Shown: piece after piece, positions 9,143-61,623 of the stretch
Layout of the letters: every line of letters starts with the position of its first letter
Position numbering within the stretch: the stretch's first letter is position 1
Assembly (NCBI GenBank): GCA_964636255.1
Contig: CAZWNW010000003.1
Location: 225,441-289,440, forward strand
DNA: 64,000 bases
Source: an uncultured Bacteriovoracaceae bacterium
GTDB lineage: Bacteria; Bdellovibrionota; UBA2428
Direction: 5' to 3'
Made by a program: the position numbers and the translations under genes
Notes under the pieces: generated by a model
Told to the model about the DNA's origin: nothing
Databases searched by the model: none
The model's input: only the letters and a program-made list of their open reading frames with translations

Positions 9143-10978
9143 ATGTTTGGTCTCAGCGGCAGTAGATCCGGTGCTACATCATCAGGATGTGATTCCCCGC
9201 TCATTCCAATCGCTCTTCAGTTTACTCGACGACCCTGGGCGTTAAAGTTATTTTTTCATTCATGGTTTATTGTAGGCAAAATGCGACCCATTGGCAGGCA
9301 GCTTCCTCTCGCAAATTGGGGAGAAAGCTTTCTCATCGCTCTTTTCGTTTTGATCGCCATTGTTGTCTTTAAAGACTTTGGGATTACCTGGGATGAACAG
9401 CAGTCCTTGGATTTGGGCCAGTTTGTTATCAACTGGTACACCAGCTTCTTTACGGATCGGCGAGCACTGGAATTAGCGGATTTTCCTAATTATGGAGGAT
9501 TGGCGTCTATCGTTTCTTGGATCAGTTACAAGTTGCTCCCGGGGCCTTTGCACTATCGGACTCACGTTGCTTACCTGATTTTTGCGGTAGCAGGTCTAGT
9601 ATTTGTTGGGCGTCTAGGTCGCTTGTGCAGTGGAAAATGGGGCGGAATATTTTCGATTCTTCTCCTGGCCTCTTATCCACTATTTTTTGGAAGCGCATTC
9701 ATGAATCCTCGGGACGTGCCTTTTGCGGCTACCTTCATTGCTTCTCTGTATTACCTGTGCCGCTTGTTGATGACGCCCACTCGCGATTCAGTGAAGTCCA
9801 AGCAACGAAGAAGGGCAATCCTAGCCTTTGGTGTGAGTTGCGGTCTAGCGGTAGCCATTCGCAGCGCGGCTCTTATTTTTATTCCCGCCTTTCTTTTCGT
9901 TACGGTGATCCAACTATTGCCTCAGAATTTTGCTAACTCCAAGTTAGGCACGCTGAAGCAAAAAATTGCGACATTTTCTCGCGATTCAATGAGAATTATT
10001 GCCGAAACCGGGATAATTGTTCTGCTTGTTTACTTAACGCTTTTTCCGTTCTGGCCTAGTGCACAGGTGAATCCTCTTTTGCCAATCCAAGTTTTTCTGA
10101 ACGGCAATGTCTTTGGCGACATCCCTACCTATTTCAACGGAAGCGTGATTTCCACTTATGACTTACCGCTCTCCTACTATGCATCTTGGTTTCTATCATC
10201 CTGTTCGGACTTCCTGCTGTCTCTTCTTATCATTTCCAGCTTGGCAATTTTGTTTCTTAGTATTCGCGATCGGAAGAGTCTTAAAACTTTCAAAGTTCTT
10301 ATCGAGATTCCCACACTCGTAGCGATCGGAGTATTCTGCTTATTCGTTTTTGGCATTGTTTTGAAACGACCGCGGGCCTACGACGGCTTTCGCCATTTTA
10401 TTTTTCTTATTCCTGTTATTTGTGTGATTTCTTCCTCACTTTTTGTGGCTACACTTCGCTCTCTGAAAAATAAAACTCTTGTAGTCGGCGCGACGATGCT
10501 TGCTGGATTTAGTTTCTTATACACGGTCAAGGAAATGGTGCTGCTTCACCCCTATCAATACATCTACTCAAATAGCTACGTTGAAGGAGGAATAAAAAAT
10601 CGCCTGAAAAACAATGAGCGAGATTACTGGGGACTCGCGCTTCACGAAAGCATTCACTGGCTTGGAAAAAAAGTCGCTGAATCAAAAAGCCTCGGGAGCA
10701 TAAGGGTCTATGGGTCCGAGTTTGAATATCCAGGAAACATCGTCAAACCACTGGCTATTTATATTGATATGCTAGCGCCAAACATCAGAAGTCGAATTGA
10801 ATACGTGTCTGAGCCCAATGACGCCGACTTAGCGATAGAATTACTGAGGGGCCATTCCTTGCACAAAGAATCACCTCAAGAGAAAATAGTTCATCAGATT
10901 GAGCGCCATGGCGTTCAGCTGGGGTTGATTTTAGACACCGGCAGGAACCCAAAACTAGCTCAACAATTAAAGAACTAA
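9143..10978 (+). CDS. polytopic membrane protein, putative GT-C-fold (ArnT/PMT-like) glycosyltransferase. An alternative start is ATG 9281.
   Basis: 611 aa with more than 10 predicted TM segments. The first loop after TM1 carries the acidic motif FGITWDEQQSLD, as in GT-C enzymes. The gene is tightly coupled to the downstream GT9 gene (TAAgATG). Confidence 0.45.
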   Translation: MFGLSGSRSGATSSGCDSPLIPIALQFTRRPWALKLFFHSWFIVGKMRPIGRQLPLANWGESFLIALFVLIAIVVFKDFGITWDEQQSLDLGQFVINWYTSFFTDRRALELADFPNYGGLASIVSWISYKLLPGPLHYRTHVAYLIFAVAGLVFVGRLGRLCSGKWGGIFSILLLASYPLFFGSAFMNPRDVPFAATFIASLYYLCRLLMTPTRDSVKSKQRRRAILAFGVSCGLAVAIRSAALIFIPAFLFVTVIQLLPQNFANSKLGTLKQKIATFSRDSMRIIAETGIIVLLVYLTLFPFWPSAQVNPLLPIQVFLNGNVFGDIPTYFNGSVISTYDLPLSYYASWFLSSCSDFLLSLLIISSLAILFLSIRDRKSLKTFKVLIEIPTLVAIGVFCLFVFGIVLKRPRAYDGFRHFIFLIPVICVISSSLFVATLRSLKNKTLVVGATMLAGFSFLYTVKEMVLLHPYQYIYSNSYVEGGIKNRLKNNERDYWGLALHESIHWLGKKVAESKSLGSIRVYGSEFEYPGNIVKPLAIYIDMLAPNIRSRIEYVSEPNDADLAIELLRGHSLHKESPQEKIVHQIERHGVQLGLILDTGRNPKLAQQLKN

Positions 10979-24670: not shown

Positions 24671-27600
24671 CTAGGAATATTCAGCGGGAGCAAATGCTTC
24701 ATTGATCAAAACTTCAACCTTCGATTTTTTATTCAGCTCAATTCCTACGACCATGAGGCGTAGTTCTGTTGAGGGCCGATTGCTGCGAGCAAGGGCCGAT
24801 GCATAGAGGCCTAATTGCCGGCGAATCTTTTGGAGGCGCTCTTCTTTCTTTAGCAAATGGATCGAAGAAGAGGACTTCCAATCAAGAATCACGGCCCCGC
24901 CATCTGCTGGAAACCATAGAGCGTCGGCGAAACCGCTTAAACGAAATTTCTCGGTTAAAAGAAAAAGTCCAAATTCTCTGAGCACTCGACCTTTTGAAAG
25001 ATCTGTCCAAAAAAATTGCAATTCCGGAAGTGCGCGCAACTGGCCAAGCGCTTCTCGAAACAACGGGGCATGTTTTTCGCCACCTAAGAGATCGTCAAGG
25101 GATTCCATTCGCCCATCCCAGATCTCCAGTAGTGCGTGAAAGGCATCGCCTGTTTCACTGGCCCGAAAACGAGGTCGGAGACCTGAAGTCTCCTCGTCCT
25201 TGGCCACTTCTTCGTCTTCCGTCAACTTCAGATAGCGACTGACACCCATACGATAAAATTCATTTGGGGATCGAGGACTATGTTTCTGCGGAGGAATTTG
25301 AATCCAAGTTTCCTGATCTGTATCCTGGGTCGCAGCATGACTTTCTGATGCTTTTGTTTCCTCGTCTTCGGCAACAAGCGCTTGGTAACGAAAGTTTCCG
25401 AGCTTCTTCAACTCATCCCAAGTTCCATTGGTCTCGAGCTTTTCGATGAAGTCGTTCCAGTAGAGTGCATTAATTTCAGGCCATTGCAAAATTCTCAGAG
25501 TGCTGTTCAAGGCGGCTTCTTTTCGAGTGTGGGCACCCTTCCGGTAGAAAAGATGCAGACTCTCTATCGAACGTGTTAAGGCGACATATAAAAGACGTTT
25601 TTGTTCAGCAAGGCGCAGACGTTCGGCTTGGGCTTCACGATAAAGAAAAAGGAGCGATCCTCGGGCCTCGCCACTTTCGCGATCTTCCAACATGAAATTA
25701 AATCCGGCGGAATCGTCAAATTCTGCAAGCTGACTGCGTGGTCCTGAGCGTTTTTCAAAAAGATCCGGAAGATAGACGCACTCAAACTGCAGTCCTTTAG
25801 AGCCATGAATTGTCATTAACTGAATCCGCCCAGATTTTTCCGCAGATTGTGGCGCATGAGGAAGATCAGTCTCCGTAAACTTGCCTTGGTTTCGAATCAT
25901 CCAGATGAGTTCGGGGAGTCCAAAATGCCAAGCGTTTTCCGAGGCCAAAAGTTGTCTTAGAAATTGCGTCATGGCACTCAGCCACTCACGTCCCAGTGGG
26001 AAGCGACGGCAATCGATCTCGTTCGAAAAGCTTTCCAAGGCTTCCAGAGGATCTTGCGCCTTCAATTCACGGAGTTCCGGATTTTGTAGAGCCTGGTATC
26101 CACGAGTCCAACGATCAACTGCCAAATTTCCGCGCGGACTTGTTTTGTCGTCCAGGCTTGTGAGGTAATCGCAAAAAATATCGGTCAGCAGGTGATCTAG
26201 GTAAGCTTCAGAGCCTAAAATTTCGTAAGTTTCACCTGATTTTCGCAAGTGCTCGGCGAATGCGCGCAGAGTACTCCAGCGTTGAAAGAGGACTGCATGT
26301 CGGGCTTTGGGCCCAAAAGTTTTTCGATTTCGGGAGATTTCAGCTGCCAGTTCTCGAAAAATATTTTCCTTGCTCGAGGTCTTTTGTTGTACGGCTGTGA
26401 CGCTCACACGACAATGGGATGTGTCTTTGCAAAACGATAGTCGCGATTCGGGAACTTTTAGAGTTTGAGCCGGAGGATCTAGTCTATCCCTGGGATCAAA
26501 AAGTGCGTGTTGCAGCGGATTGATAAAATCTAAAACTTGCGGATGTGAGCGGTAATTTTCGTCTTTGGCGATCAGTTGAAGTTTTTCGCGTTGTGCGATG
26601 AAAAGACTGACATCGCTTCGGCGGAAGGCATAAATGCTTTGTTTCGGATCGCCGACAAAATACCATTCGGTATCGACTCCACTGAGATGCTCAAGAATTT
26701 CCATTTGTACTTTATTCGTGTCTTGAAATTCATCGACCAGAAGAAGTTTTGGGGCAGGAACAATCCTCTCTCCTTTTTGGCTGCTTTCGCGAAGGGTCAT
26801 CAAAAATTCATACTCCAGAGCGGCAAAATCCAGAATACGAGGCCCTTGATCGCGACAAGCCAAAATAAATGATTTCAAGGTCGTTTCAAGTTCCCACTCT
26901 TCGCGTAGAGATTTTTCATTCAAACTGGGCCAAAAAGGTCCCTTTGCGAAGTCTCGAAAATGGCTGACCTTTTTAAAGTAATCCACTTCGGCATCTTTGA
27001 TTTTCTTCAGCGCGCGAAATTGTAGTGAAGCAATTTTCTCGCGATTAGATTCTTGGAGACCCGCTACTAAGTCCAGGGGCCAAAGATTTTTTGCTGACGA
27101 CGAGGCAATCTCTTCGTTGTAGCGAATCAAGATATCCTGAGTCTCTTGAAGCAAGTCTTTTTTGAAATTTTCGAAGGATTGGAGTGATTCTCTGAGGTTT
27201 CGGAGAACTTCGCCGGAATCCGTCTCAAGTGTTGGCGAATACCAAAGTTTCGTGGTCAAAGCTAAGATTTCTTCAAGCGGGAGAGATCTTAAAAGACCTT
27301 CACCATCGGGAAAATCCGCAAGGTACTGAAGGGCAAAGGCCTTGCGTCGGTAGCTAGCGGCAGATTCGTGGTGGAGTTCGTCCCCATAGCCCAATCGAAA
27401 AAGTTCGGGACGTAGGAGTCTGAGGCAGAGACTGTGGAATGTAGAAATTTGGCTTCGTTGGAAAACTTCTGTGAAGATCGAATCTAGATGATGCTTGCGT
27501 AACTTATCTAAGATCTTCTCTTTCATTTGTTCTGCGGCTTCAATGGTGAAGGTTAATGCGAAGATCTCGGGTGGGTGAAATCCGCCGCCCGTAGCCTTTA

Positions 27601-27712
27601 ATTTTTCGTCGAACTCGAGATAGCCCAAACCTTCGATGTAGCGAGCCACAAGGCCCGTGGTTTTACCGCAACCTGCACCGGCCTCGACAAGTTCCCTTCG
27701 TACTTTTGTCAT
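24671..27712 (-). CDS. addA: ATP-dependent helicase/nuclease subunit A (UvrD/Rep-type helicase with C-terminal PD-(D/E)XK nuclease)
   Basis: The N-terminal Walker A is VEAGAGCGKTTGL. UvrD-like motifs run through the protein. The C-terminal nuclease-like segment is AVILDWKSSSS. Its ATG overlaps the upstream gene stop (ATGA). Confidence 0.75.
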   Translation of the reverse strand: MTKVRRELVEAGAGCGKTTGLVARYIEGLGYLEFDEKLKATGGGFHPPEIFALTFTIEAAEQMKEKILDKLRKHHLDSIFTEVFQRSQISTFHSLCLRLLRPELFRLGYGDELHHESAASYRRKAFALQYLADFPDGEGLLRSLPLEEILALTTKLWYSPTLETDSGEVLRNLRESLQSFENFKKDLLQETQDILIRYNEEIASSSAKNLWPLDLVAGLQESNREKIASLQFRALKKIKDAEVDYFKKVSHFRDFAKGPFWPSLNEKSLREEWELETTLKSFILACRDQGPRILDFAALEYEFLMTLRESSQKGERIVPAPKLLLVDEFQDTNKVQMEILEHLSGVDTEWYFVGDPKQSIYAFRRSDVSLFIAQREKLQLIAKDENYRSHPQVLDFINPLQHALFDPRDRLDPPAQTLKVPESRLSFCKDTSHCRVSVTAVQQKTSSKENIFRELAAEISRNRKTFGPKARHAVLFQRWSTLRAFAEHLRKSGETYEILGSEAYLDHLLTDIFCDYLTSLDDKTSPRGNLAVDRWTRGYQALQNPELRELKAQDPLEALESFSNEIDCRRFPLGREWLSAMTQFLRQLLASENAWHFGLPELIWMIRNQGKFTETDLPHAPQSAEKSGRIQLMTIHGSKGLQFECVYLPDLFEKRSGPRSQLAEFDDSAGFNFMLEDRESGEARGSLLFLYREAQAERLRLAEQKRLLYVALTRSIESLHLFYRKGAHTRKEAALNSTLRILQWPEINALYWNDFIEKLETNGTWDELKKLGNFRYQALVAEDEETKASESHAATQDTDQETWIQIPPQKHSPRSPNEFYRMGVSRYLKLTEDEEVAKDEETSGLRPRFRASETGDAFHALLEIWDGRMESLDDLLGGEKHAPLFREALGQLRALPELQFFWTDLSKGRVLREFGLFLLTEKFRLSGFADALWFPADGGAVILDWKSSSSIHLLKKEERLQKIRRQLGLYASALARSNRPSTELRLMVVGIELNKKSKVEVLINEAFAPAEYS

Positions 27713-30138
27713 TGCAGAGTTTCCTCAAATTTCTCTTCTGTTGTCGCAGCTTCCAAAAGATAGGGGCGTCCACAAAAACCCTGTACGCGGCAATAACGGC
27801 ATTGCGCATCTTTAAAAGGTTTGGCGTCATAACTGCCGGACTTCAGCCCGTTCAGTGCCTTCTGAATTTTGGCATCAAGTGCCTCATTGAGGGTGTTCAA
27901 ATAGTCAGATGTGCAGATTTCGACTTTATGCCCGTAGCGATCGGCGATTTCATTGAGCGCACTGCCCAGGGAAGCTTCAGGTAGGATCAGGAGACGGGAC
28001 TTCTCAGGCGCCAGAGGATTGAGGTAGCCCCCGCCAATGATTCTTCGGCCCTGGAATTCAGGCAGATCTTCAATCAGTTGACGATAGAGGAGCCACTGCA
28101 AATGATTGTGCTCAAGTAGCCTTTCAAATCGACCTTCCATGCGTCCAGTCTTGTAATCCCACAATAGGATTTCGCCACTGGGCAGGAGGTCGATGCGATC
28201 AACTTTTCCTCGAAATTTTTGACCTTTATAAGCACCTTCAACCCAAACTTCAGTGCGGACTTCGCGTGTTGCTGCAATTTGATAAAGTTCTTTTTCAAAT
28301 CCCTCAAGGTGCCTGGCAAGTTTTTCAGAGAGGGGCCCCGCTTGTTTTAAAAGTAGTTGTTTGTAAGCAGGGCTAACTCCATTCTTGAAAACGTGATCGA
28401 GTTTTTCAGCGAGTTCCTGATAGAGATTCGCGCGTGTATCGTGAAAAATTTTCCTAGGCAGAAAACTTTCTAAAACTCGATGGATCCAATCGCCGCGTAG
28501 ATTTTCCGGCATTCGTTCCGGATCGACAACGGTTGCTTCTTGCAGGCGCAAGACTCTTTCAAGATAAAAACGTAATCCGCAGTTGAGATAACTCTCCAAA
28601 GCTGTGGGTGAAGGGCATTCTTTTTCATAAGGAAGAAGTTGAATGGCCTCTTGGGTGTCGATCTGAGGTTTTTCAAGGGGAATCCTGATGAAAAACACAT
28701 CATTTTGAAAGGCTTGAATGAGTGTTGCGAGTTTCCGCATCTCGCGTGCCGGTTTCGGTAAGGAGATGCCCTCGGCCTCGAAACAGTCTTCAAGTTGGGG
28801 AGGTAGGAGATTTAGACGGCTGGATTGAGCGTGAAAGGGATCACAAAGAGCGCGGAGCGATTCTGGCTTCGCCCAAAGAGCTATATTTTCATTGGGCAAA
28901 AACGCAAAGTCGTGAATGCTCAGTACTGGTATCCCATTGGCGTGAAATCGTTGATGCGGCGGTGTTTCACGCGCCTCTCTCAGAAGTCCAAGTTCTAGAA
29001 AAATCCGGCACCAATCCTCGAGACTTTGGAAGTCCTTGGGGCCGTCAGGAAGGGGGGCGGGCCGTGCTTCAGAACGCTCCCAAAGTTTTTCAAGAGCCTG
29101 CCAACAATCAGCGACAGAAAAGTCTGCCGTCAATCGCAATCGAGAACTCTTCTTTGAAAAGAGCCAAGGATGTTTCGAGGGGCAAGCCAATCGGCGATAC
29201 TGGGCAAATAAATAGAGTTCTCGAATTTCTGGCGAATGACTTCTAAGTTCATCGTAGGGAAGATCAAGTGCTTGATCGCCCGGGATCCACTCAGCGATTT
29301 CCGCGGCCGTTGGGAGGGATTCCGGATAGGCCCAAAAAATGGCAAGTCCTGTCTTATCTTTTAAATCACTCTGTGGAATATTTGTGAAGTCCACACTTTC
29401 GCTTTCAGCAATTGGAATCCTCAGGAGTTGGGGAAAGTTTTGGCCGATTTTCTCGGACCACAATCGCAAAAAACTTTCCTCAAGGGCATAAGGATCACGA
29501 TTCTCGATGACAATAATTCGGAGCGGACTTTCCGATCGGGGGTCACGTTCTAAAATCTGTGTCCAGTCTTCAGGGCCGAGACTTGAAAGAGCATTGCGGA
29601 CACTCAAGACGGCTTCAACTGCCTGCCACTCTGAGAGCCAGAATTTATGTTGAGCGGCTTCGGCTCTGAGTCGCAAATAGGCGATGATTTGCTCGGTGGC
29701 ATCCTTCAGTTCTGGGTTTTTACCTAGCTCATAACTGCGCAATACATCAGGCCAACGCTCTAGGGAGATGCTGGAGGGGAAGAGATACTTAAAATTCTGC
29801 TGAAAGGAAAAGAGGCGCCATGGCCGTGTTGTCGGATACAGCTTAGCTAATTCACGCATGATATCCAGAGGACTTAGGATCGGAAAACGCAGACGAGTAA
29901 GATTTTTTCGTTCAAGTTGAAGGAGAATGCGCATTGCGAGCTGCGGAATACGATAGACGCCCGGATTGGGCCAGCCAGTCATCTGAACACGAGCGTCTTT
30001 AAGTTTGCGATCTCCGCCCGGGCTTAAACTGCGGTCCAGAGTTAGGAGACAGTTCTCGGCTTCGAAAACATCGATAGCGGGGTGCTCGGTCTGGGCCAGT
30101 ATCTTGTTGATGAAGTGGTTTAACGTCTTAGCATTCAA
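27709..30138 (-). CDS. addB: AddB-like helicase-nuclease subunit B (inactive helicase fold plus a PD-(D/E)XK nuclease with a Cys cluster). The TTG start is uncertain.
   Basis: The nuclease motif is VDRIDLLPSGEILLWDYKTG. The C-terminal Fe-S-type cysteines are CRYCRVQGFCG. It lies upstream of and overlapping addA, matching the addB-addA order. At 809 aa it is shorter than the usual AddB. Confidence 0.65.
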   Translation of the reverse strand: MNAKTLNHFINKILAQTEHPAIDVFEAENCLLTLDRSLSPGGDRKLKDARVQMTGWPNPGVYRIPQLAMRILLQLERKNLTRLRFPILSPLDIMRELAKLYPTTRPWRLFSFQQNFKYLFPSSISLERWPDVLRSYELGKNPELKDATEQIIAYLRLRAEAAQHKFWLSEWQAVEAVLSVRNALSSLGPEDWTQILERDPRSESPLRIIVIENRDPYALEESFLRLWSEKIGQNFPQLLRIPIAESESVDFTNIPQSDLKDKTGLAIFWAYPESLPTAAEIAEWIPGDQALDLPYDELRSHSPEIRELYLFAQYRRLACPSKHPWLFSKKSSRLRLTADFSVADCWQALEKLWERSEARPAPLPDGPKDFQSLEDWCRIFLELGLLREARETPPHQRFHANGIPVLSIHDFAFLPNENIALWAKPESLRALCDPFHAQSSRLNLLPPQLEDCFEAEGISLPKPAREMRKLATLIQAFQNDVFFIRIPLEKPQIDTQEAIQLLPYEKECPSPTALESYLNCGLRFYLERVLRLQEATVVDPERMPENLRGDWIHRVLESFLPRKIFHDTRANLYQELAEKLDHVFKNGVSPAYKQLLLKQAGPLSEKLARHLEGFEKELYQIAATREVRTEVWVEGAYKGQKFRGKVDRIDLLPSGEILLWDYKTGRMEGRFERLLEHNHLQWLLYRQLIEDLPEFQGRRIIGGGYLNPLAPEKSRLLILPEASLGSALNEIADRYGHKVEICTSDYLNTLNEALDAKIQKALNGLKSGSYDAKPFKDAQCRYCRVQGFCGRPYLLEAATTEEKFEETLQ

Positions 30139-30190
30139 ATCGCGTGTGAGTTTATACAGTGATTCAAGAATCTGTCACGGAGTCAGCTGA

Positions 30191-30610
30191 TTATTCAGTC
30201 GCTGGTGCGGTATCCGTTGCGACTTCCTCTGGGCGAGGCCAAATCGCAAGGCCCGTTGCGGCCGCAGGTTCAATCACCGAGCGCAGGGTCCACTGATTTC
30301 CTAGATCATAGGCATCCGCTGAGGGCACCATATGAATCGTATCCCAGGGGCAATATTTCGCGCAGGCCTTGCAGCCAATGCAGCGGTCCTGATCGACTTC
30401 TACCATTTTTTCCATATCCGGAAATTTGGGGCCGGGAACCAATTCAATGCAGTCGACAGGGCAAAACTGAATACAGGCTTCGCATCCTGTGCAACCCGAT
30501 TGATCGATCACGGCGATCACCTTGGGAGTTTTGATTTTGCGCACCGGTTTTTCTTTCAGCTGGACACGTACTTCTTCGGCCCGCTTTTCGGAAATGTCGC
30601 TGTAATCCAT
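30191..30610 (-). CDS. 2[4Fe-4S] ferredoxin
   Basis: Two CxxCxxCxxxCP motifs: CTGCEACIQFCPVDCIE and CIGCKACAKYCPWDTIH. ATG at 30610 gives MDYSDIS. The ORF track starts at TTG 30628. Confidence 0.8.
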   Translation of the reverse strand: MDYSDISEKRAEEVRVQLKEKPVRKIKTPKVIAVIDQSGCTGCEACIQFCPVDCIELVPGPKFPDMEKMVEVDQDRCIGCKACAKYCPWDTIHMVPSADAYDLGNQWTLRSVIEPAAATGLAIWPRPEEVATDTAPATE

Positions 30611-30823
30611 TTCCTCATTATAAAGCAAATATTTCCAAGAATTGCCAGAACTCTACGGCAAGCTTTTTGGCGAGCCAAATCGAAGAATTTCAGTGCGTTA
30701 TTGGGTTGGCGATGGGCTAGGGGGAGCTGGGACGGGATGCGCGATAGGCAGCCGGGATCTTTACTAGAAATTTACCAAGATGCTGTTTAATATTCTCCAG
30801 AGAATTTGCCGAAAGGTTAAAAG

Positions 30824-36135: not shown

Positions 36136-36447
36136 ATGGCGGCTCTTTCACCAAAAACGCTTTCACTTTCAAAGCTGGGTCTCCTTTTAATCTTGGCTGC
36201 CTGCCGGGGGCCAGTAAAGGGTGGGGCTCCCACGGAGGAAGCGGGGCGGGATGCACCCATTCCCGATGTGCTCCTAAACGAGGCACCACAGGCCCAAGAG
36301 AATATGCTGGGAACGGGTGCACTGGATTCGATGAACGAAGAAGCGATTCATTTTGAACCATTGCCGGAGGCGAGCGAAGGAAGTCCCTATCAACAAAGTT
36401 ATCAAGACGAAGAGGAGCCTCGCGATCCCTCTAAGAAAAAAAATTAG
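36136..36447 (+). CDS. small acidic lipoprotein, hypothetical
   Basis: MAALSPKTLSLSKLGLLLILAAC gives lipobox LAAC. The mature part is Glu/Asp-rich. The ORF track starts at 36079. Confidence 0.45.
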   Translation: MAALSPKTLSLSKLGLLLILAACRGPVKGGAPTEEAGRDAPIPDVLLNEAPQAQENMLGTGALDSMNEEAIHFEPLPEASEGSPYQQSYQDEEEPRDPSKKKN

Positions 36448-36836
36448 AATTCCGTGCATCGACGAATGAGATCAAGAATTTTTGATTTCCGCGACAAACG
36501 GTCCAAACAGAAGTGAAGACCGTCCCACTTGAGAATCGATTGGCAATTGGATGGGACCTCGCTGCGTCCCTTCAAGCCACCGGCAGGTCTGCGCAAATCC
36601 TTTAGCCACGGTAGCGAAACCGCGTGTTTGGGTATGGTGGTGTTGCCACAATAACGAGTTCCGTGCTCTTCGGTGATGAAAAATTCATTGAGTTCAGTGA
36701 ATCGTTGGCTTGCCACTCGGCGAAGCACACTCACATCGATCTGCCCTTTCTTAGTGGCGAATGCGCTGGTCGTAACCACAAAAAAACAAAGAAGACCCAG
36801 AATTGCTAAGCATGAAGAGTGAGACAGGTGCCTCAT
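36444..36836 (-). CDS. small secreted Cys-containing protein. Its start overlaps the stop of the upstream gene (ATGA).
   Basis: ATG at 36836 gives MRHLSHSSCLAILGLLCFFVVTTSAFA, a signal peptide. The track ORF is longer (to 36932) but overlaps the upstream CDS. Confidence 0.45.
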   Translation of the reverse strand: MRHLSHSSCLAILGLLCFFVVTTSAFATKKGQIDVSVLRRVASQRFTELNEFFITEEHGTRYCGNTTIPKHAVSLPWLKDLRRPAGGLKGRSEVPSNCQSILKWDGLHFCLDRLSRKSKILDLIRRCTEF

Positions 36837-37939
36837 AGCGTGCAGTCCTCGCCTTTTTCGACGCGTGTGCAGGCCAGGGTGTCGCGTAAATATTGATTGA
36901 AAAATGCTGCGGACGCAGGAGCATCGGCACAAAAACTTTCCATTCCGGCCCAGGCGTTCTTTCTGCGATTCTCTAAATTTTTAGGATGATTCTTTTTGAG
37001 CCAATCGGCGTAGAAACGGCCGCCGACTGCGAGAGTTAAGGCGGATGAATTCGTCGCTGCTTTTGGACCACAGACCTCTTCCTGAAATCCGCTTTCATGG
37101 TGAATCGCGCCGCTGCTGTTGATGACCTGGGCCAACTCGCGGGCCATCAATGCGCGTAAGTCTGAGTGTTCATTCATCGTACCTATACAAACCGTGAAGC
37201 TATTGGAATCCAAATCGTAAAACACTTGTCGCCCCAGGCTGCCGCATGCCGAAGCCTCATCGAGATTTGGCAACTGAAGGCGCAGAGACCTAATTTTTGC
37301 GATCCAAAGTTTTTTTGTTTCTGGCGATAAATTTTTAGACGCTTTGAGGCTTTCGGTAACACTGGCGCTCATTTCAGAGAACTGTTTTTCGGCGTCTCGG
37401 AAGATCGCTGTGTTTTTCCACATCGCGCCAATTATTTCGGAATTCAGATTCTTTACAATTTCGAGTCGATTTTCCTCTGATGCAGATTCTGTTAACTCAT
37501 TTTCGGCTTTGACACCTTCAGCAGAAGGCATTCGGGAGTCAACGGTAGCTTCAAAGGCCGCGTTCCAGGCCGCCGACAATCGAATCGTCATCACTTCTGC
37601 TTCGGCAATATTCTCGGTGCCAGCCTCACTCGTTTTTGCGAGAAACTCTGAGACTTGCGCGAAATAACCCTCGCTCTCGAGTTTCGCGCGGAGGTCTGCA
37701 GGCAATTTTTCCTTGCGAGCGAGACGTTGTTCAAGATGCATTTTTACACGCCGGCTGTATAGACCCTCTGCTCGTTGGTTATTGGCACAATGATCTTTCA
37801 ACATTGAAAGGCAACTCACGTTTGCACCAAGCTGAGCCGGTGTTTTTGCATCCGGCATATGACTCTTTTTTTGAGCCCCCGCAAATTCAGTGAGTGAAAG
37901 AGTTAAGAGAAAGACCAATACGGTATTGAAAGCGCGCAT
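36833..37939 (-). CDS. secreted hypothetical protein
   Basis: The signal peptide is MRAFNTVLVFLLTLSLTEFAGAQ. Length is 368 aa. Confidence 0.55.
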   Translation of the reverse strand: MRAFNTVLVFLLTLSLTEFAGAQKKSHMPDAKTPAQLGANVSCLSMLKDHCANNQRAEGLYSRRVKMHLEQRLARKEKLPADLRAKLESEGYFAQVSEFLAKTSEAGTENIAEAEVMTIRLSAAWNAAFEATVDSRMPSAEGVKAENELTESASEENRLEIVKNLNSEIIGAMWKNTAIFRDAEKQFSEMSASVTESLKASKNLSPETKKLWIAKIRSLRLQLPNLDEASACGSLGRQVFYDLDSNSFTVCIGTMNEHSDLRALMARELAQVINSSGAIHHESGFQEEVCGPKAATNSSALTLAVGGRFYADWLKKNHPKNLENRRKNAWAGMESFCADAPASAAFFNQYLRDTLACTRVEKGEDCTL

Positions 37940-38062: not shown

Positions 38063-39856
38063 CTAAAGGAGCTGCAACGTTGAGCTGACCAAATTTCCAC
38101 CACGCTCTAGGCTTTGGTAGTTGGGATGATGCAGCTGAATGCCTCGAGAATCTTGTCGCAGATTGCCGATGTTGGTGGTCGTAAAGCGTGCTTCATAAAG
38201 AGTTTCTAGCGGCAATACGACGTTCGCGATATCCGTCAAGGGACCTCGCAAGGAGTCCGCGACGACGACAAAGGGGGCTTGTTTCAAATAGTTCACGAAA
38301 TTTTCCGGCAGTGTGCGTTGTGTGCTTTGACCGAAGACAAATACGGGTCCCACAGGGTGAGCTTCACCGAGTTCATCATGCAGCATCTCAACAGGAACAA
38401 TGCCTTCGTTCAAAAGGCCGCGGCCATTCAAATGACTCAGCAGCGGAATTGCGTGAGCATTGCTCGGCAGCATTTTGTAAAGAGCCCATTCACCTTCAGA
38501 AATCGGCATGGGCAATAGGTAAAGTGTCTCATCCAAGGCATCCGATGACTGGAAAAAATCTTTTTGTGGACGTTTTTCCCAGAGAAGCTTTCCGCTGCGA
38601 ATGGCGGGACCAAAAGTGAGCGAGAGAATGGGAATTTCTGTTTCAAGCTCACGGTAGCTCTCTAGAAGACTAACGATCTTTTTATACTTCTTGAATTGAG
38701 CGGGTGCCGAAAAAAGTGGAGTCGAAGCTTTTGTCGACCACAATTCGAGGAATTTTTTTGCGGTCTTCAATGGGTTGATCCCAGCGACATTGCGACCACG
38801 TTTTTCCCACGAAGCTGCAAGTGATTTTGCCCATGAAATTTCTTCATGAGGCGCTTCATCCCAGATCCAAAATTCCCAGCTTCCTTTAGTCTCTTCGATG
38901 GCAGCCTGGACTTCGCGCAAACTTGTCGATTCTAAGATCTGATCGCGACGAATCATCGGCGAATAAAGTCGACGTTCTTCCTCGTTATGAAAGTGATAGC
39001 CCCAACGGCCTTTGTCGCAGATCCACCAGTCGTTGACGGCAGCATTTTCCCGCGGCACCAATCGTTCAATGAGTGGCTTGGGGGGCATTCCATCCGGGCG
39101 CGCAATGCCGGGGTGGCGGTGTTTGGTGTGAATTTCCACATTGCATCCCATCGAGCAGCCGGTACAAATGCCCTCATGTTTTCGCAGCTCCCAGGGTCGG
39201 GCTTTGAAGCGATAATCGATTGCAGTTAATGCTCCGACGGGACATAAATCCACGACATTTCCCGAAAAAGGACTTTGCATAGCCCGACCTGCAAAAACAT
39301 CGATCTTCGACTTTGAAGCGCGTTCATTCACAACCAATTCCGTTCGGCCATCCAGTTCCGACGAAAAACGCACACAACGTGTGCAAAGAATGCAACGCTC
39401 TTGATCCAGCATCACTCCTTCGGCGACCGGCTTATGTTTGTCGAGAAGTTCTTTTTCTTCGGTCATGCGCGAGCGCGACGGACCATGATCGTAAGTATAG
39501 TCTTGGAGTTTACATTCTCCTCCGCGATCACAAATGGGACAATCTAGCGGGTGGTCCAGAAGCACAAATTCCAAAGTGGCGTTCTGACCTTTTTTTACAA
39601 AATCAGAATTGGTTTTAACTTTCATGCCTTCATTCACTGTGGTCGAGCAAGCAGTGGCTAGTTTTTTCTGGCCCTCGATTTCCACGTAACACATACGGCA
39701 CTGTCCAACGATCGTCAGTCCCGGGTGATAACAAAAATGGGGAATGAAGCTCTCAGCTTTTTTTGCAGCTTCGATCAGCGTGGTTCCCGGTGCAACCTGC
39801 ACCTCTTGACCGTCGATCGTCAGTTTTACGAGTGCTGCTATTTCGTTATCTGCCAC
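38063..39856 (-). CDS. nuoG: NADH-quinone oxidoreductase subunit G (75 kDa Fe-S subunit), short form
   Basis: The N-terminal 2Fe-2S is CYHPGLTIVGQCRMCYVEIEG. The 4Fe-4S motifs are HPLDCPICDRGGEC and CILCTRCVRF. The GTG start has GGAG upstream. Length is 597 aa. Confidence 0.8.
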   Translation of the reverse strand: MADNEIAALVKLTIDGQEVQVAPGTTLIEAAKKAESFIPHFCYHPGLTIVGQCRMCYVEIEGQKKLATACSTTVNEGMKVKTNSDFVKKGQNATLEFVLLDHPLDCPICDRGGECKLQDYTYDHGPSRSRMTEEKELLDKHKPVAEGVMLDQERCILCTRCVRFSSELDGRTELVVNERASKSKIDVFAGRAMQSPFSGNVVDLCPVGALTAIDYRFKARPWELRKHEGICTGCSMGCNVEIHTKHRHPGIARPDGMPPKPLIERLVPRENAAVNDWWICDKGRWGYHFHNEEERRLYSPMIRRDQILESTSLREVQAAIEETKGSWEFWIWDEAPHEEISWAKSLAASWEKRGRNVAGINPLKTAKKFLELWSTKASTPLFSAPAQFKKYKKIVSLLESYRELETEIPILSLTFGPAIRSGKLLWEKRPQKDFFQSSDALDETLYLLPMPISEGEWALYKMLPSNAHAIPLLSHLNGRGLLNEGIVPVEMLHDELGEAHPVGPVFVFGQSTQRTLPENFVNYLKQAPFVVVADSLRGPLTDIANVVLPLETLYEARFTTTNIGNLRQDSRGIQLHHPNYQSLERGGNLVSSTLQLL

Positions 39857-39884
39857 GTTATCGCTTCTCCATTCTATTCATTGA

Positions 39885-41591
39885 TTAACGATCAATCTCG
39901 CCTAGTACGGGATCCATGCTGGCAACAGTTGCAACGGCATCGGCGATGAGTTTGCCTTTCACAAGTTCCGGAAGAATAGCAACACTGCGAAAGGCCGGAC
40001 TGTGAATACGCAATCGGGCCGGGGAATTTCCGCCATCACTCTTCAGGAAAAAGCCGAATTCCCCTTTAGGATTTTCAATGGCAGAGTAAATCTGGCCTTT
40101 CGGAGCTTTGAAGCCTTCGGAAATAATCTTGAAATGCCAAATCAATGCTTCCATCTGTGTGTAGGTTTCTTCTTTGGTGGGGATAACGACTTCGGGAACA
40201 TCTGCGTTGATCGGACCCTCGGGAAGACCCGCGATAAGCTGCTGCAAAATTTTGATGCTCTCTTCCATTTCTCTGAGGCGCACCAAGTAGCGATCATAGG
40301 CATCACCCTGGGTGCCTACGGGTACGCGAAAATCCATTTCATTGTAGAGCATGTAGGGCATGTCTTTTCTAAGATCCCACTTTAGCCCCGTGGCGCGAAG
40401 ATTGGGTCCCGTGACGCCATACTTGATGCCCAATTCCGGAGTGATGACTCCGACCCCGCGTGTGCGGTCGATCCAAATGCGATTGTTCGTTAGCAGTGCA
40501 CTCATCTCATCCAGTGTTTGGGGAAGCTCTTTAAGGAAAGTTGTCAGGCCGTTCAGGAATGCCGAATTTGCATCACGTGAAACGCCACCCACTCGGGTGT
40601 AGCTGGTGGTGAAGCGGTGTCCGGCGAGTTTTTCGATGAGGTCGTAAATTTTTTCGCGTTCATCAAAAGTGTGGAAAAAAACCGTCGCAGCTCCGACGTC
40701 AAGTGCATAGGTTCCGAGCGAGAGTAAGTGGGCGCTGATCCGAGCCAATTCACAGGCGATCATGCGGATGTACTGACCTCGACGGGGAACTTCAATTCCT
40801 AGAAGTTTTTCAACCGCCAAGGTGTAGCTGACATTGTTTGATAAGGGGGCCAAATAATCTAGACGATCCGTGTAGGGAATAAATTGGTGAAATCGCTTGT
40901 TCTCGGCGATCTTTTCAAAACCCCGGTGGAGATAGCCGATTTCAGGAATACATTGAACAATGGTTTCACCATCGATCTCCAAAATCAGGCGTAAAACTCC
41001 GTGGGTCGAGGGATGCTGCGGACCCATGTTGAGAATAATTGTTTCTCTTTGTGATTTTCTGATGGGAGTCGTGATCGAGGGAAGTGAAAGTTTAACGCTT
41101 TCATCCGCGCGGCTAATGGGTCGCGTACCCTCGCCGCGCTTAATTTTCTCCTGAATTTTCATGACGGCCTGGATCACAGCCTCCGGTCGCGGAGGACAGC
41201 CCGGAATGTAGACGTCGACTGGGACTATGTGGTCGAGCCCCTGGACAACACTGTAACTGTCGAACATACCACCCGTGCAAAGGCAGGTGCCCATCGCGAT
41301 TACCCATTTGGGCTCCATCATCTGGTCGTAAATTTTCCGAACAACGGGGGCCATCTTATAGGTCAGGGTGCCGGCCACGATCATGAGGTCTGCTTGGCGT
41401 GGCGAAAAGCGCAAGACTTCGCTTCCGAATCGGGCCATATCAAAACGCGGACCGACGGCGGCCATCATTTCGATTGCGCAGCAACTGATGCCCATGGGCA
41501 TCGGCCAAAGACTGTTGGCGCGACCTTGGTTGATCACCCAGTCGAGTGAGGTTGTGATGACGGAGTCTCCGAGCTTCGATTCAAGTCCCAT
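39885..41591 (-). CDS. fused NuoB-NuoD (complex I 20 kDa plus 49 kDa subunits) without a NuoC domain
   Basis: The N-terminal NuoB signatures are [19 protein letters not shown] and IPGCPPRPE. After a linker of about 30 aa, NuoD starts with [17 protein letters not shown]. At 568 aa total there is no room for a NuoC domain. Confidence 0.8.
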
Positions 41592-41667: not shown

Positions 41668-42048
41668 TTAAACGGCTTCCGGATCCGGGCGCAAGTCAGT
41701 GCGTTCTTCGCGCAAAACCTCTCGAATGTCGCCGCGTTTTTGATAGGCCCGCAGAAGCAAATCCTGACGTGCTAGTAAACGCTCGCTGCGGCTGATCTTT
41801 GCCAGAATACGATCGATCTGAATGTCTTGAAGTTTGCCTTGTTGAGCCAATTGAACCGCGATTTCTCCGGCGCGGCGATAGGATTGCCGTTGTTTCTGCT
41901 GAATCTTGGCGGAATCCCAAAGAATCTGGAGAATTTTGCCGGTACGAAGTAGTTCGCGGACCGAAGGGCCCAGTGTGCGGCGGACCCAGCGCAGAAGACG
42001 CCACCCGAAACTACGATTTTTTTTCAATCGGGCACGTGCGCGAGTCAT
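41668..42048 (-). CDS. basic, helical hypothetical protein
   Basis: 126 aa. It is very Arg/Lys/Gln-rich with coiled-coil-like composition. It lies directly upstream of the nuoBD fusion on the same strand. Confidence 0.35.
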   Translation of the reverse strand: MTRARARLKKNRSFGWRLLRWVRRTLGPSVRELLRTGKILQILWDSAKIQQKQRQSYRRAGEIAVQLAQQGKLQDIQIDRILAKISRSERLLARQDLLLRAYQKRGDIREVLREERTDLRPDPEAV

Positions 42049-48891: not shown

Positions 48892-50256
48892 TTATTGAAA
48901 AAAATCTGGGGACGAGTCGAAATCCCCAAAGTCAAAAGATAATTGTCCGCGAATTACGATGTCACGAAAGAGATTCATGTCATGGGTTTCACGGCCATGG
49001 GAATCGACAATGTTGGGCAGGCGTAAGAGTGTGAAGGATCGGAATCCGAACTGAGACATGTTGTTTCGAATGTTTTCATAGGCTCTCCGGTAGCCAAAGA
49101 TCGGCAGCGCATTTTCACCGTTCAAAACGACGCCGACTTCGCGAGCGATTGTCGAAACCTCGTGCACAAGTCCCTGGGGCGAACTGTAATTGGGGTGGCC
49201 TGAATTTTCATCGAGTTCAAGACAGGTGAAAGTCAATTCGAGATTCAGTGCGCGCATGGCCGAGAGAATGCTTCGATATTCCATATAACCAGTCGCATAT
49301 TCAGCCGAGTGAGGCATCTCCGGATTGGTGAATTGCCAGTGAAGCCCTGCGATCTTTGCTCCCAATTTTACTTTAAACTTGGGCAGCAAGTTTTCATGGG
49401 CTGCTCGGCTCATGTTTTTCATGTGTTCCAAAAGTGAACCTTGGTACCAGAGCATAAAATCGCGACCATACGCACTTCGTATTCCCGTTCGAAAAAATTG
49501 ATCACCGTCGGTGGGGGGACCGATCTGCTCCCATGATGTAAGAGCACTATTCCAGGCGCGATTGAGCTGATCTAGTGATTGGCCGTACTTATGTCGTAAA
49601 GTGTCCTGAAAGCTGCGAATCGCTAGGGGCGAGTGGGCTTGAATACGGCCCGGCTCGGGATAGCGCCAGCCCGAGGCAGCGTTATAGGAAGGGTAGCGCA
49701 GTTCACCAGCAGGACCCATGCTGATGTAGACTTTTTGAATGATGTCGCGAAAGTCTTGAAAGTGATCGCCGAAGGAGGCGAAGGCCTCGCCATATTGTTC
49801 GTAAGCGCGGCCAAACCAGGGTGCAATGTATTCACCATTCTCGAAACCGTTTTGGTCGCGATAAACCATATTGATACGACCGCCCAGTTGCCAAACCCAA
49901 GAGGGAAGGGGAACATTGCAGTCATCACCCACATTGCCACCGCATTGATGGAAAGAGAGAATCGGAGTCCATTTGAGTCCCTCATCACGAAGGACTTGGG
50001 CGTATTGGCGGTAGTAGTCCCAATCAAAGAGATTGTCGCCGCGCGCTTCGAAATCACCCCACCAGATATCCGTAGTGACTCCGGCCACACCGTTTCTTTT
50101 GAGGGTTTTCAGTTGCTCGCGAAATGAATGCCAATTCTGGATTTTCGTCAATGGCATCATGACGTAGATTTCCGCTGCGAAAGACTGCGCCGAGATCAGA
50201 AATAGAAAACAGGAAAGAAATTTCCTGTGAAAAATATTTGTCAGAGCCCCACTCAT
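48892..50256 (-). CDS. secreted glycoside hydrolase family 14 beta-amylase-like protein
   Basis: The signal peptide is FLSCFLFLISAQSFAAE. GH14 hallmarks are IYVMMPL, DIWWGDFE, ILSFHQCGGNVGDDCNVPLPSWVW, GPAGELRYPSY and GLHWQF. Confidence 0.7.
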   Translation of the reverse strand: MSGALTNIFHRKFLSCFLFLISAQSFAAEIYVMMPLTKIQNWHSFREQLKTLKRNGVAGVTTDIWWGDFEARGDNLFDWDYYRQYAQVLRDEGLKWTPILSFHQCGGNVGDDCNVPLPSWVWQLGGRINMVYRDQNGFENGEYIAPWFGRAYEQYGEAFASFGDHFQDFRDIIQKVYISMGPAGELRYPSYNAASGWRYPEPGRIQAHSPLAIRSFQDTLRHKYGQSLDQLNRAWNSALTSWEQIGPPTDGDQFFRTGIRSAYGRDFMLWYQGSLLEHMKNMSRAAHENLLPKFKVKLGAKIAGLHWQFTNPEMPHSAEYATGYMEYRSILSAMRALNLELTFTCLELDENSGHPNYSSPQGLVHEVSTIAREVGVVLNGENALPIFGYRRAYENIRNNMSQFGFRSFTLLRLPNIVDSHGRETHDMNLFRDIVIRGQLSFDFGDFDSSPDFFQ

Positions 50257-59436: not shown

Positions 59437-61623
59437 TCAAGCTAGGAAGTTGAGTAGCTTTTCGATCAACGCATCTCTTGAAAACGGCTTCGACAAGTAA
59501 TCGCTAAATCCGAAAGAGAGACAGCGTTCCTCTTCATCTTTCATTGCAAAGGCTGTCACGGCTAATATGGGTTTTGTGTATCCTTGAGACCTTAAGCGTT
59601 CTGTAACCTCGTAACCACTCATGCCTTCAAGTTGTATGTCGAGCAGAAGCAAGTCGAAATTTTCATTTAAAGCCTTTTGGACTGCTAGATCTCCACTTTC
59701 GGTAAAAATTAACTCTACTCCAGTAGTGCTAAGAAATTCCTTTAAGAGATGCTGATTGTCAGCCATATCTTCTGCGGCAAGAATACGTTTTCCTTGTAGG
59801 CTAGAAAGCTTACTGGGCGTCGTAGATTTTGGGACGACTTTGGAATCATCATGTGCACTGAGCGTCGTTGCTGGAAGACTTAGTAAAAACTCACTACCTT
59901 CGCCGGGGCAACTGAAGGCTAGCACCAGGTCTCCTCCCATTCGGTGCGCCAATTGTCTTGAAATATAGAGACCTAGGCCCGTTCCAGGATTTGGGAATCC
60001 TTTCGTCTTCAACTTGGAAAAGGGTTGAAACAATTCCTGCTGCTTTTCCTTTGGGATACCCAGCCCAAAGTCCTTTACTGAAATTTGAATTCGAGGTGTG
60101 GCCTGGTCGTAACTGGAGCAATTCGCCTGGATTTCCACGGTTTTTCCAACTGAAAACTTAGCAGCGTTGTTCAATTAATTGATTAGAATCTGCCGCAGTC
60201 TCAATGGATCAAGACAGACTTCGGCTCTATCTTTACTCACTGGCTTGTAGACAATTTTAACCGACTGAACAGAGGATTTGTCTCGAGTGAGGTTCACAAT
60301 CTCTTCGATTTCATCGTTCAAATTGACATTTCTGTTTTGAATTTGAATCTTATCTAAATTCATAGCAGATAAATCGAGTAGATCATTGATCAACGAATGC
60401 AAGTGTTGCCCGTTTCGTTCAATGGCTTCGAGCCATCGCTTAGCATTGTCTGACAGAGGTTCATTGCTTTTTCTAAGCAGTTCAGAAAAACCCAGAATAC
60501 TTCCTAGAGGTGTTCTCAGTTCATGGCTAATATTCGCAAGAAATGCGTCTTTAGTTCGGTTCGCAAATTCTGCTTTCTCTTTGGCTTCTTTGAGTTCACT
60601 TTCAATTCTCTTTTGTTCAGATATATCGCGAGAGACGCCGACTAGATAGTCTACCTGACCCGAGTTGCCGTTTCGGAAGACGGGACTCAGCGTGGTGCTA
60701 AAGTAATGAGTCTCACCTGTGGGCATCTTGTCCTTACTTTCAATGGCTTCAGAAGAACCGCTTTGAATAACTCTGCGGTAGATTTCGGCATAATGATCCC
60801 CGGCCTCTTGCCCCAATAAATCCCAAACAGTGCGACCTAGAATGACATCATAGCCCCCAACGTTTTGGGAAGACTTTTTGTTGACGTGGCGAAAAGTCAT
60901 ATCTCTATCGACGACCCAAATGGCTTCAGTTGCTGAATCAAAAACAGCTTTTAATTTGGCGCTTGCCTGACGGGCCATCTCTTCGGCGTTTTTTCTGGTG
61001 AGAATCTCTTTCTCAAGTTTTTGAATGATCGTCTCGTTTTTTTCGATGACGCGTCTTTCTGCCAGAATCAGATACAAAACTGCGGCTGCGATTGTGAGTC
61101 CCGTGGAATAAAATATGGATGATGCGATCAACTTTGAAGCAGGTTTTGAAATTTCGACCCAAGGACCTAATTGAAATCCAGAAAGAAATAAAAACAAGTA
61201 AAGTAACAGCGGCAGCAATAGCCCAAGAAAAATCGAAACTCTTTCTCGCCAAGTAAAAAGCACAAAAGGGAAGACGATGACAGCTAAATAATAATAGTAG
61301 ATTCCTGAATCAGGCCCAGTTGCCACTGAAAAGAACGTGACAGCCAAGCTTCCTGTTAGAACAGGCAAAAGACGCGCAAAGTGAATCCAGCCTACAGACG
61401 ATGAAAGTGGGACAAACAAATATCCAGCGACGACAAAAAGTACCATGCCTGCCAATTCGATTGAGCCAAGAAGCCAAAAAATAGCTGTGTAAGGTAGCGT
61501 GATGAAGACAATGGAAATCGAAAGCTGATTGGCAAGTCGTAAACGCCTAGAAAGCAGGGGATCGGAAACATGTTGGGATCCCATGGATGAAATCTTTTCC
61601 CAGATGCTCCTGACGTTGGTCAT
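59437..61623 (-). pseudogene. hybrid sensor histidine kinase (TM sensor - PAS - HisKA - HATPase - REC) interrupted by an in-frame TAA at 60175-60177 inside the ATP-binding N-box
   Basis: The upstream part ends ...LRLRQILIN, then TAA. The same frame continues LNNAAKFSVGK..., rebuilding the N-box QILIN[L]LNNAAKFS. The H-box is ISHELRTPLGSILGFSELL. G-boxes and the REC domain (ILAAEDMADN...LLLDIQLEGMSG) are downstream. TAA is one substitution from TTA (Leu). Confidence 0.7.

Follow-up and report, generated by a model that had tools for sequence, protein, structure and literature searches.

A NuoB–NuoD fusion without NuoC, followed by nuoG, in Bacteriovoracaceae and other bacteria

In a 64,000-nt stretch of DNA from an uncultured Bacteriovoracaceae bacterium (phylum Bdellovibrionota; contig CAZWNW010000003.1, positions 225,441–289,440; here called the window), one gene encodes a protein of 568 amino acids (aa) that joins the complex I subunit NuoB to NuoD with no NuoC between them, and nuoG is the next gene. 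An initial annotation, made from the letters of the DNA alone, had pointed out this arrangement. We found that the fusion (BD) is not peculiar to this genome but represents a conserved family present in several phyla. We propose, with a probability of roughly 0.6, that BD and NuoG (BD–G) would form the electron-transfer core of a complex I that is encoded by scattered genes and works without NuoC. That BD and NuoG are genuine complex I subunits is very probable.

Domains and cofactor residues of BD and NuoG

The fusion gene (39885–41591, minus strand) encodes a complete NuoB, a short linker and a complete NuoD. The NuoB domain (aa 1–153; 41133–41591, minus strand) carries the cysteines for Fe-S cluster N2 and matches PF01058 and TIGR01957. 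The NuoD domain (aa 176–568 plus the stop codon; 39885–41066, minus strand) contains the quinone-reduction site and matches TIGR01962. In Pfam searches, residues 37–145 belonged to Oxidored_q6 (PF01058, NuoB) and residues 298–568 to Complex1_49kDa (PF00346, NuoD), and Complex1_30kDa (PF00329), the domain of NuoC, had no match at E ≤ 0.01 in the fusion or in NuoG. In agreement, NCBIfam placed nuoB_fam on residues 11–152 and NuoD TIGR01962 on residues 184–568, the latter with 543 bits against a cut-off of 459. Both collections thus support the original description of a NuoB–NuoD fusion lacking the 30-kDa domain. The profile of the three-domain NuoBCD fusion (NF009808) reached 700 bits, below its cut-off of 1156, and aligned in two stretches that skipped the C part; the best stretch paired fusion residues 175–568 with profile positions 398–791, and ∼230 C-part positions had no counterpart. 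PF00329 was present in a true BCD fusion (P0264) and absent from the window protein and from P0093.

Alignments with PDB chains ended the B part at about residue 153–161 and began the D part at about residue 172–184. Because both borders are placed by these alignments, the linker is most likely ∼20 aa long (range 10–30); a linker had been correctly annotated, but its length of ∼30 aa lies at the upper end of this range. We assigned it to aa 154–175 (41067–41132, minus strand), where it occupies the place that NuoC takes in BCD fusions. No domain was detected in the linker by Pfam, NCBIfam or our own NuoC hidden Markov model (HMM). Its sequence is poorly conserved, although some S, R, P and T residues recur, and in the AlphaFold model it is extended and without secondary structure, with a predicted local distance difference test (pLDDT) score of ∼73–85. 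No chain with a B–D architecture was found in the PDB search.

The residues that bind cofactor and substrate are kept. Cysteines C37, C38, C103 and C132 of the NuoB domain (tandem CC, C and C-P; cluster N2) were invariant in 61 fusion proteins, as were H193 and H197 of the HPSTHG loop and Y246 of the RLDY motif in the NuoD domain. We take H197 and Y246 to be the equivalents of His38 and Tyr87 of Thermus Nqo4. The NuoB domain aligned with Thermus Nqo6, Mycobacterium smegmatis NuoB and Escherichia coli NuoB through residue 153–161. The D domain matched mitochondrial 49-kDa subunits with E = 7e-127 in the PDB sequence search and with 41–48% identity in fold-search alignments. The AlphaFold model of the fusion had a predicted template modelling (pTM) score of 0.83, and its D domain superimposed on chain D of complex I with a template modelling (TM) score of 0.95 and a root-mean-square deviation of 2.1 Å. 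Model confidence was low around residues 50–60 and 223–242, and we infer that these segments may face the membrane subunits. As in ordinary complex I, the loops at the quinone site and those that face NuoH are conserved. Direct reading of the D-domain sequence found no cysteines at NiFe-ligand positions: cysteines occur only in IVQCIPE and IACELAR, and HRGFEKI and DPVLGEIDR replace the cysteine pairs of hydrogenases. In agreement, hydrogenase profiles scored ∼20 bits (E-values ∼1e-4), and the two CxxC pairs of hydrogenase large subunits are missing. BD therefore combines a NuoB that has the N2 cysteines with a NuoD that lacks NiFe cysteines and has the quinone-site His and Tyr.

Nonsynonymous divergence (dN) between BD and its relatives was 0.08–0.17, the lowest value being against a relative of 90% identity; dN for NuoG was 0.23–0.43, and synonymous sites (dS) were saturated for both genes. 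Judging from sequence, BD is a working gene under strong constraint, because its ligands are invariant, the D fold is kept and dN is low while dS is saturated.

The nuoG gene (38063–39856, minus strand; 597 aa) begins 28 nt after the fusion, and a GGAGAA ribosome-binding site lies 8 nt before its GTG start. Its position as the next gene had been noted before, and its domains and ligand motifs agree with that assignment. Pfam recognised Fer2_4, NADH-G_4Fe-4S_3, Fer4_Nqo3 and Molybdop_Fe4S4. The N-terminal 300 aa hold the cluster ligands, and by motif reading the sets for N1b, N5, N4 and an N7-like cluster are all intact (C42/C53/C56/C70, H102/C106/C109/C115, C155/C158/C161/C205 and C231/C234/C238/C280), so that N1b, N4 and N5, which mark a complex I NuoG, are all provided for. 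Residues 8–313 aligned with 75-kDa subunits in the PDB. The C-terminal half is divergent and comprises a shortened molybdopterin-like domain, with no Pfam or NCBIfam profile match at residues 322–597. Since its match is confined to the N-terminal half, TIGR01973 stayed below its cut-off of 470, at 388 bits. Aligned over its full length, the protein is 31–34% identical to NuoG from other BD-type operons (588–663 aa); one of these fits TIGR01973 end to end. Acidobacteriota stop-to-stop open reading frames (ORFs) for NuoG measure ∼550–600 aa, and a paralogous NuoG described below has 493 aa. For NuoG of this clade and its neighbours, ∼600 aa is a normal length, and the earlier description of it as short does not hold. 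The C-terminal half was also considered as a disguised NuoC and rejected: it had no match to the NuoC HMM and aligned with the C-terminal halves of NuoG from other operons.

A small basic ORF (41668–42048, minus strand; 126 aa), already listed in the initial annotation, is the first gene of the unit and is separated from the fusion gene by 76 nt. In 18 related loci a homologue with 35–75% identity immediately precedes the fusion gene; an identical protein is on record in NCBI, eight further homologues were found, and the homologues share 32 invariant columns. No match was found in Pfam, NCBIfam, PADLOC or PHROG. The AlphaFold prediction, a pair of long helices, had a pTM of 0.31, a confidence insufficient for fold searching. 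In other phyla the fusion is not preceded by this ORF. From these comparisons of sequence and gene order, it is a real, conserved gene restricted to the window's lineage, and since its position is fixed, a role as a lineage-specific accessory or assembly factor is suggested. As a candidate for a disguised NuoC it was discarded on negative NuoC HMM scores.

NuoC and other complex I genes around the fusion

The NuoC HMM was built from nine NuoC genes of canonical operons and recovered NuoC in all 130 fetched canonical loci (B-C-D, B-CD or C-D), in each of which C either separates B from D or forms one chain with D. Control loci came in part from a metagenome scan for fusion operons with membrane genes; its search patterns derived from the NuoB part and retrieved at least 79 canonical B-C-D loci and at least one fusion, and we used these loci solely as a control for the HMM. 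Applied to all frames of the 64-kb window, the HMM gave no match at E ≤ 10. It likewise found no NuoC within 6–10 kb of the fusion in 31 fusion loci, and in the same intervals nuoA, nuoC, nuoE, nuoF, nuoH and nuoJ–nuoN were absent from 31/31. No standard nuoA–N operon therefore accompanies the fusion at these distances. When all ORFs of the canonical nuo loci were compared with all window ORFs by BLAST, BD and NuoG were matched, a ferredoxin was matched weakly, and nothing else was. Pfam searches of nearly all window ORFs of ≥150 aa returned unrelated functions, with nothing respiratory beyond BD and NuoG. The three approaches together uphold the earlier statement that the window contains none of nuoA, C, E, F and H–N.

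Two further candidates for missing subunits were rejected. The ferredoxin (30191–30628, 145 aa) scored 38 bits against a NuoI cut-off of 113; it is a generic 2×[4Fe-4S] protein closest to RnfB-type profiles. The ORFs at 36833–37939 and 36444–36932 have no homologue in relatives and no family match. A promoter and terminator scan gave nothing above chance.

Distribution of the fusion and a second gene set

The same fusion was found in well over 100 independent assemblies, with intact reading frames and 58–93% identity, and because of this recurrence it is not an assembly artefact. The closest fusions (78–93% identity) come from metagenome-assembled genomes (MAGs) labelled Bdellovibrionota, Bacteriovoracaceae or Bacteriovorax, and a second tier at ∼60% comprises other Bdellovibrionota and MAGs labelled Krumholzibacteria, Nitrospirae or Pseudomonadota. 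Nearly all of the best 120 matches are fusions of ∼570 aa that contain PF01058 and PF00346 but lack PF00329; a few are truncated. An exact look-up returned no record for the BD protein of the window itself. The databases name these proteins merely ‘subunit D’. In a library clustered at 50% identity the family collapses into one representative, whose next relatives are BCD fusions (771–829 aa, 48–50% identity) and ordinary NuoD.

In a neighbour-joining (NJ) tree of D domains, 22 of the 23 fusions formed one clade, nested among lineages with an adjacent NuoC gene (Acidobacteriota, Verrucomicrobia, Ignavibacteria and Bacteroidota). Because the clade is nested among NuoD lineages that have NuoC, the loss of C and the fusion of B to D are derived; they were probably a single event, with transfer between phyla afterwards.

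The fusion either shares a small operon with NuoG, NuoI or both, or stands alone; C, E, F and membrane subunits are never its neighbours. The order small ORF-BD-G seen in the window is kept in 16–18 Bacteriovoracaceae-type loci, so that synteny with relatives extends to the whole unit. BD-G-I occurs in five other lineages, the I gene scoring above the NuoI cut-off, and BD-I in one locus. The fusion stands alone in a MAG labelled Nitrospirae (L006), where an 81-aa NifU-like Fe-S scaffold gene (9763–10008) overlaps its start.

Several neighbourhoods and distant proteins showed further features. In four Krumholzibacteria-type loci (L001, L002, L003 and L009), an entire rnf operon, for ferredoxin:NAD+ oxidoreductase, and apbE follow directly on BD-G-I, with a SnoaL-like gene in between in three of the four. 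Two loci carry a stand-alone 166-aa NuoB paralogue ∼5 kb downstream of BD-G-I (L008, 16745–17245; L077, 17268–17768); it scored above the NF011393 cut-off, and its neighbours are DHH/DHHA1 genes and, in L008, also a gene for a FAD-linked oxidase, which is not seen in the truncated L077. Three distant proteins of 34–38% identity (P0335, P0293 and P0394) also join NuoB straight to NuoD without NuoC; one of them has a NuoI-like 2×[4Fe-4S] domain in front, giving the order I-B-D, and P0394 has lost the tandem N2 cysteines. Judged by these sequences, Q-modules without NuoC may have arisen several times, because direct B-D and I-B-D fusions occur in the distant P0335 and P0293.

A second, canonical peripheral-arm operon with the order B-CD-E-F-G-I, overlooked in the initial annotation, exists in the same bacterial family (L078, 1739–7736; L050). 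It encodes NuoB (176 aa), NuoCD (557 aa), NuoG (493 aa) and NuoI (175 aa) as well as NuoE and NuoF, and no membrane subunit genes lie beside it in L078. The D part of this CD paralogue is 43–44% identical to the D domain of the window. The 120 closest NuoC-containing proteins of the window's family are all CD fusions. The family's NuoC cannot serve a BD-containing complex, because it comes attached to a different NuoD and each complex has room for a single D. BD (P0001) and CD (P0127) had seemed to share a contig, as both contigs measure 19,832 bp; they come from different samples, and a common contig was ruled out.

Readings of the BD–G unit and further features of the window

In the arrangement we favour, the small ORF, nuoBD and nuoG would be co-transcribed as one unit for the central electron-transfer core of a quinone reductase of the complex I type. 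The single BD chain would provide cluster N2 and the quinone pocket, and NuoG would provide N1b, N4, N5 and the N7-like cluster. The remaining subunits would be encoded elsewhere, with a membrane arm presumably drawn from a nuoAHJKLMN cluster. NuoI, which follows G in other lineages, would have become detached in that of the window, and the electron-input subunits E and F would either have their genes at another site or give way to a different donor. Starting from separate B, C and D genes, an ancestor would have lost C and joined B end to end with D, once, before the fusion spread across phyla. The covalent B–D tether and a surface-bound linker could then replace the scaffolding or assembly role of NuoC, which carries no cofactor. 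We regard it as moderately probable that the assembled BD-containing enzyme has no NuoC.

Several points weigh against this proposal. NuoC is regarded as a universal core subunit, so that its true absence is a priori unlikely, and a free-standing nuoC could lie far from the fusion, the scans having covered the 64-kb window and ∼20 kb per fusion locus. No physical link ties BD–G to a membrane arm. NuoE and NuoF never lie beside the fusion, so the gene order points to no electron donor. A second complex I gene set usually accompanies the fusion in the same genome (the stand-alone NuoB of L008 and L077; the B-CD-E-F-G-I operon of Bacteriovoracaceae), and BD could therefore be an auxiliary paralogue. 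As for a single origin, the deep branches of the NJ tree are very short, and one fusion (L007) falls just outside the clade.

The strongest competitor is a normal 14-subunit-type complex I in which nuoC has moved elsewhere in the genome, the B–D fusion being an accident of gene order after its departure. The span of DNA inspected leaves room for such a gene, and BD, G, I and the membrane arm are dispersed in these genomes, as seen in our loci and reported in PMC13147790. We nevertheless consider this unlikely. No fusion locus has a free-standing NuoC, and the closest NuoC-containing proteins of the window's family are without exception fused to NuoD. A lone C would also be without precedent in our data set, where every canonical C sits between B and D or is part of a CD chain.

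Less likely still is that BD–G is an alternative peripheral module that, in certain conditions, competes with the canonical B-CD-E-F-G-I set for a shared membrane arm, or that works with another partner or with a donor such as ferredoxin or flavodoxin in place of NADH. The initial annotation had spoken of a ‘partial or alternative’ module. Of these words, ‘partial’ is misleading, because Bdellovibrionota reportedly keep their nuo genes in scattered clusters (PMC13147790 and PMC4758237), and BD–G most likely contributes one part to a complete enzyme; ‘alternative’ survives as the lesser possibility considered here. It draws on the presence of two peripheral-arm gene sets in one family, the canonical one (L078) likewise lacking adjacent membrane subunits, and on the fact that E and F never accompany the fusion. 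The ferredoxin-handling rnf operon directly after BD-G-I in Krumholzibacteria and a 2×[4Fe-4S] ferredoxin, which both the window and its relative have at a distance of 7 kb, would also suit a different donor. However, the rnf adjacency occurs in one phylum alone, and the loops that form the quinone site and face NuoH are those of an ordinary complex I. In addition, PMC13147790 reports two membrane-arm gene sets in Peredibacter and a second nuo cluster in predatory Bdellovibrionota, and sharing of one arm is therefore not required. Finally, a decaying or redundant duplicate that lost NuoC on its way out is highly improbable: a canonical paralogous set does exist and a kinase gene elsewhere in the window is split by a nonsense codon, a sign that this genome undergoes some decay, but in well over 100 assemblies from several phyla the BD reading frames are uninterrupted, no ligand varies, and at 58–93% identity dN stays far below the saturated dS.

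BD–G can be compared with several known forms of complex I. In the canonical Q-module (NuoB/Nqo6/PSST, NuoC/Nqo5/30 kDa/NDUFS3 and NuoD/Nqo4/49 kDa), the N2 motif, the quinone-site His and Tyr and the D fold are the same as in BD. However, B, C and D are separate there, whereas in the window B and D form one chain and no NuoC was detected in the gene, the window or the neighbourhood. The NuoBCD fusions reported from Desulfobacterota and some other ‘deltaproteobacteria’ (NF009808) also place B before D in one chain but contain the C part that the window fusion lacks. NuoCD of the E. coli type, present in Bacteriovoracaceae as well (L078 and L050), is likewise a Q-module subunit fused to NuoD; its partner is C rather than B, and unlike BD it sits in an operon with the N-module. 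Complex I of Campylobacter and Helicobacter lacks NuoE and NuoF (mentioned in PMC12361115). Its NuoG has no adjacent E and F, as in BD–G, and a donor other than NADH is possible. In contrast to the BD family, these bacteria keep NuoC and a single operon, and for BD the E and F genes may be encoded elsewhere.

Within the phylum, the nuo genes of Bdellovibrio are described as ‘split’ in PMC4758237, and PMC13147790 reports a nuoAHJKLMN cluster without its own B, C, D, G and I in all Bdellovibrionota. These sets show the same dispersal as BD–G, and the membrane cluster lacks the B, D and G that BD–G would supply. The main text of neither paper describes a B–D fusion or an absence of NuoC. More widely, we found no description of a B–D fusion without C in the searchable literature, which lists CD and BCD fusions and variants lacking the N-module; the first impression of an uncommon fusion was correct in this respect. 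Genomes with missing subunits are treated as incomplete, and in one MAG a missing nuoC was blamed on incompleteness. The myxobacterial clusters of PMC2330069 are written nuoEFJKLMN plus nuoIHGDBA, without C, yet are called ‘fourteen genes’; if the text is literal, a complex I set without NuoC would also exist with unfused B and D. The B–D fusion without C is an addition to the known CD and BCD types and a solid observation, and its mechanistic consequence is plausible but unproven.

NuoC (NDUFS3 in humans) carries no cofactor and is held to be indispensable; it pairs with NuoD early in assembly, and defective NDUFS3 leads to disease. Tentatively, BD may point to a widespread bacterial complex I that assembles and pumps protons without NuoC, the B–D weld compensating for its loss, and perhaps also without NuoE and NuoF, with another donor feeding electrons through NuoG. 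If so, a natural family without NuoC would help to define whether NuoC acts as scaffold, assembly chaperone or interface to NuoG and NuoI, and would offer a minimal Q-module for structural and engineering work. Surveys that demand all 14 subunits would score such organisms as ‘incomplete’ for complex I. A second, differently built peripheral-arm set in predatory bacteria also hints at condition-specific respiratory enzymes.

Some further features were noted elsewhere in the window. Between nuoG and a 2OG-Fe(II) dioxygenase gene, the segment 36444–37939 (minus strand) contains two ORFs of 368 and 162 aa; at the same spot six other ORFs, all unannotated, occur in a relative of 93% identity, and a single small ORF in the 90% relative. 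On this comparison the segment is a variable insertion spot and does not belong to the unit. A gene for a hybrid histidine kinase (PAS-HisKA, HATPase_c-receiver; 59437–61623, minus strand) is split by an in-frame TAA at 60175–60177, which falls in the conserved N-box (RLRQILIN*LNNAAKF, the asterisk marking the stop). From the usual N-box we would expect a leucine codon at this position, and TTA is one base away; the TAA stems either from a nonsense mutation or from an error in sequencing. At 24671–30628 (minus strand), the 145-aa 2×[4Fe-4S] ferredoxin gene lies immediately upstream of a gene pair for an AddB/AddA-like nuclease-helicase, as it does in the 90% relative. This relative also shares a gene for a glycoside hydrolase of family 14 (GH14, beta-amylase; 48892–50256, minus strand; 487 bits), an enzyme that is, to our knowledge, rare in bacteria.

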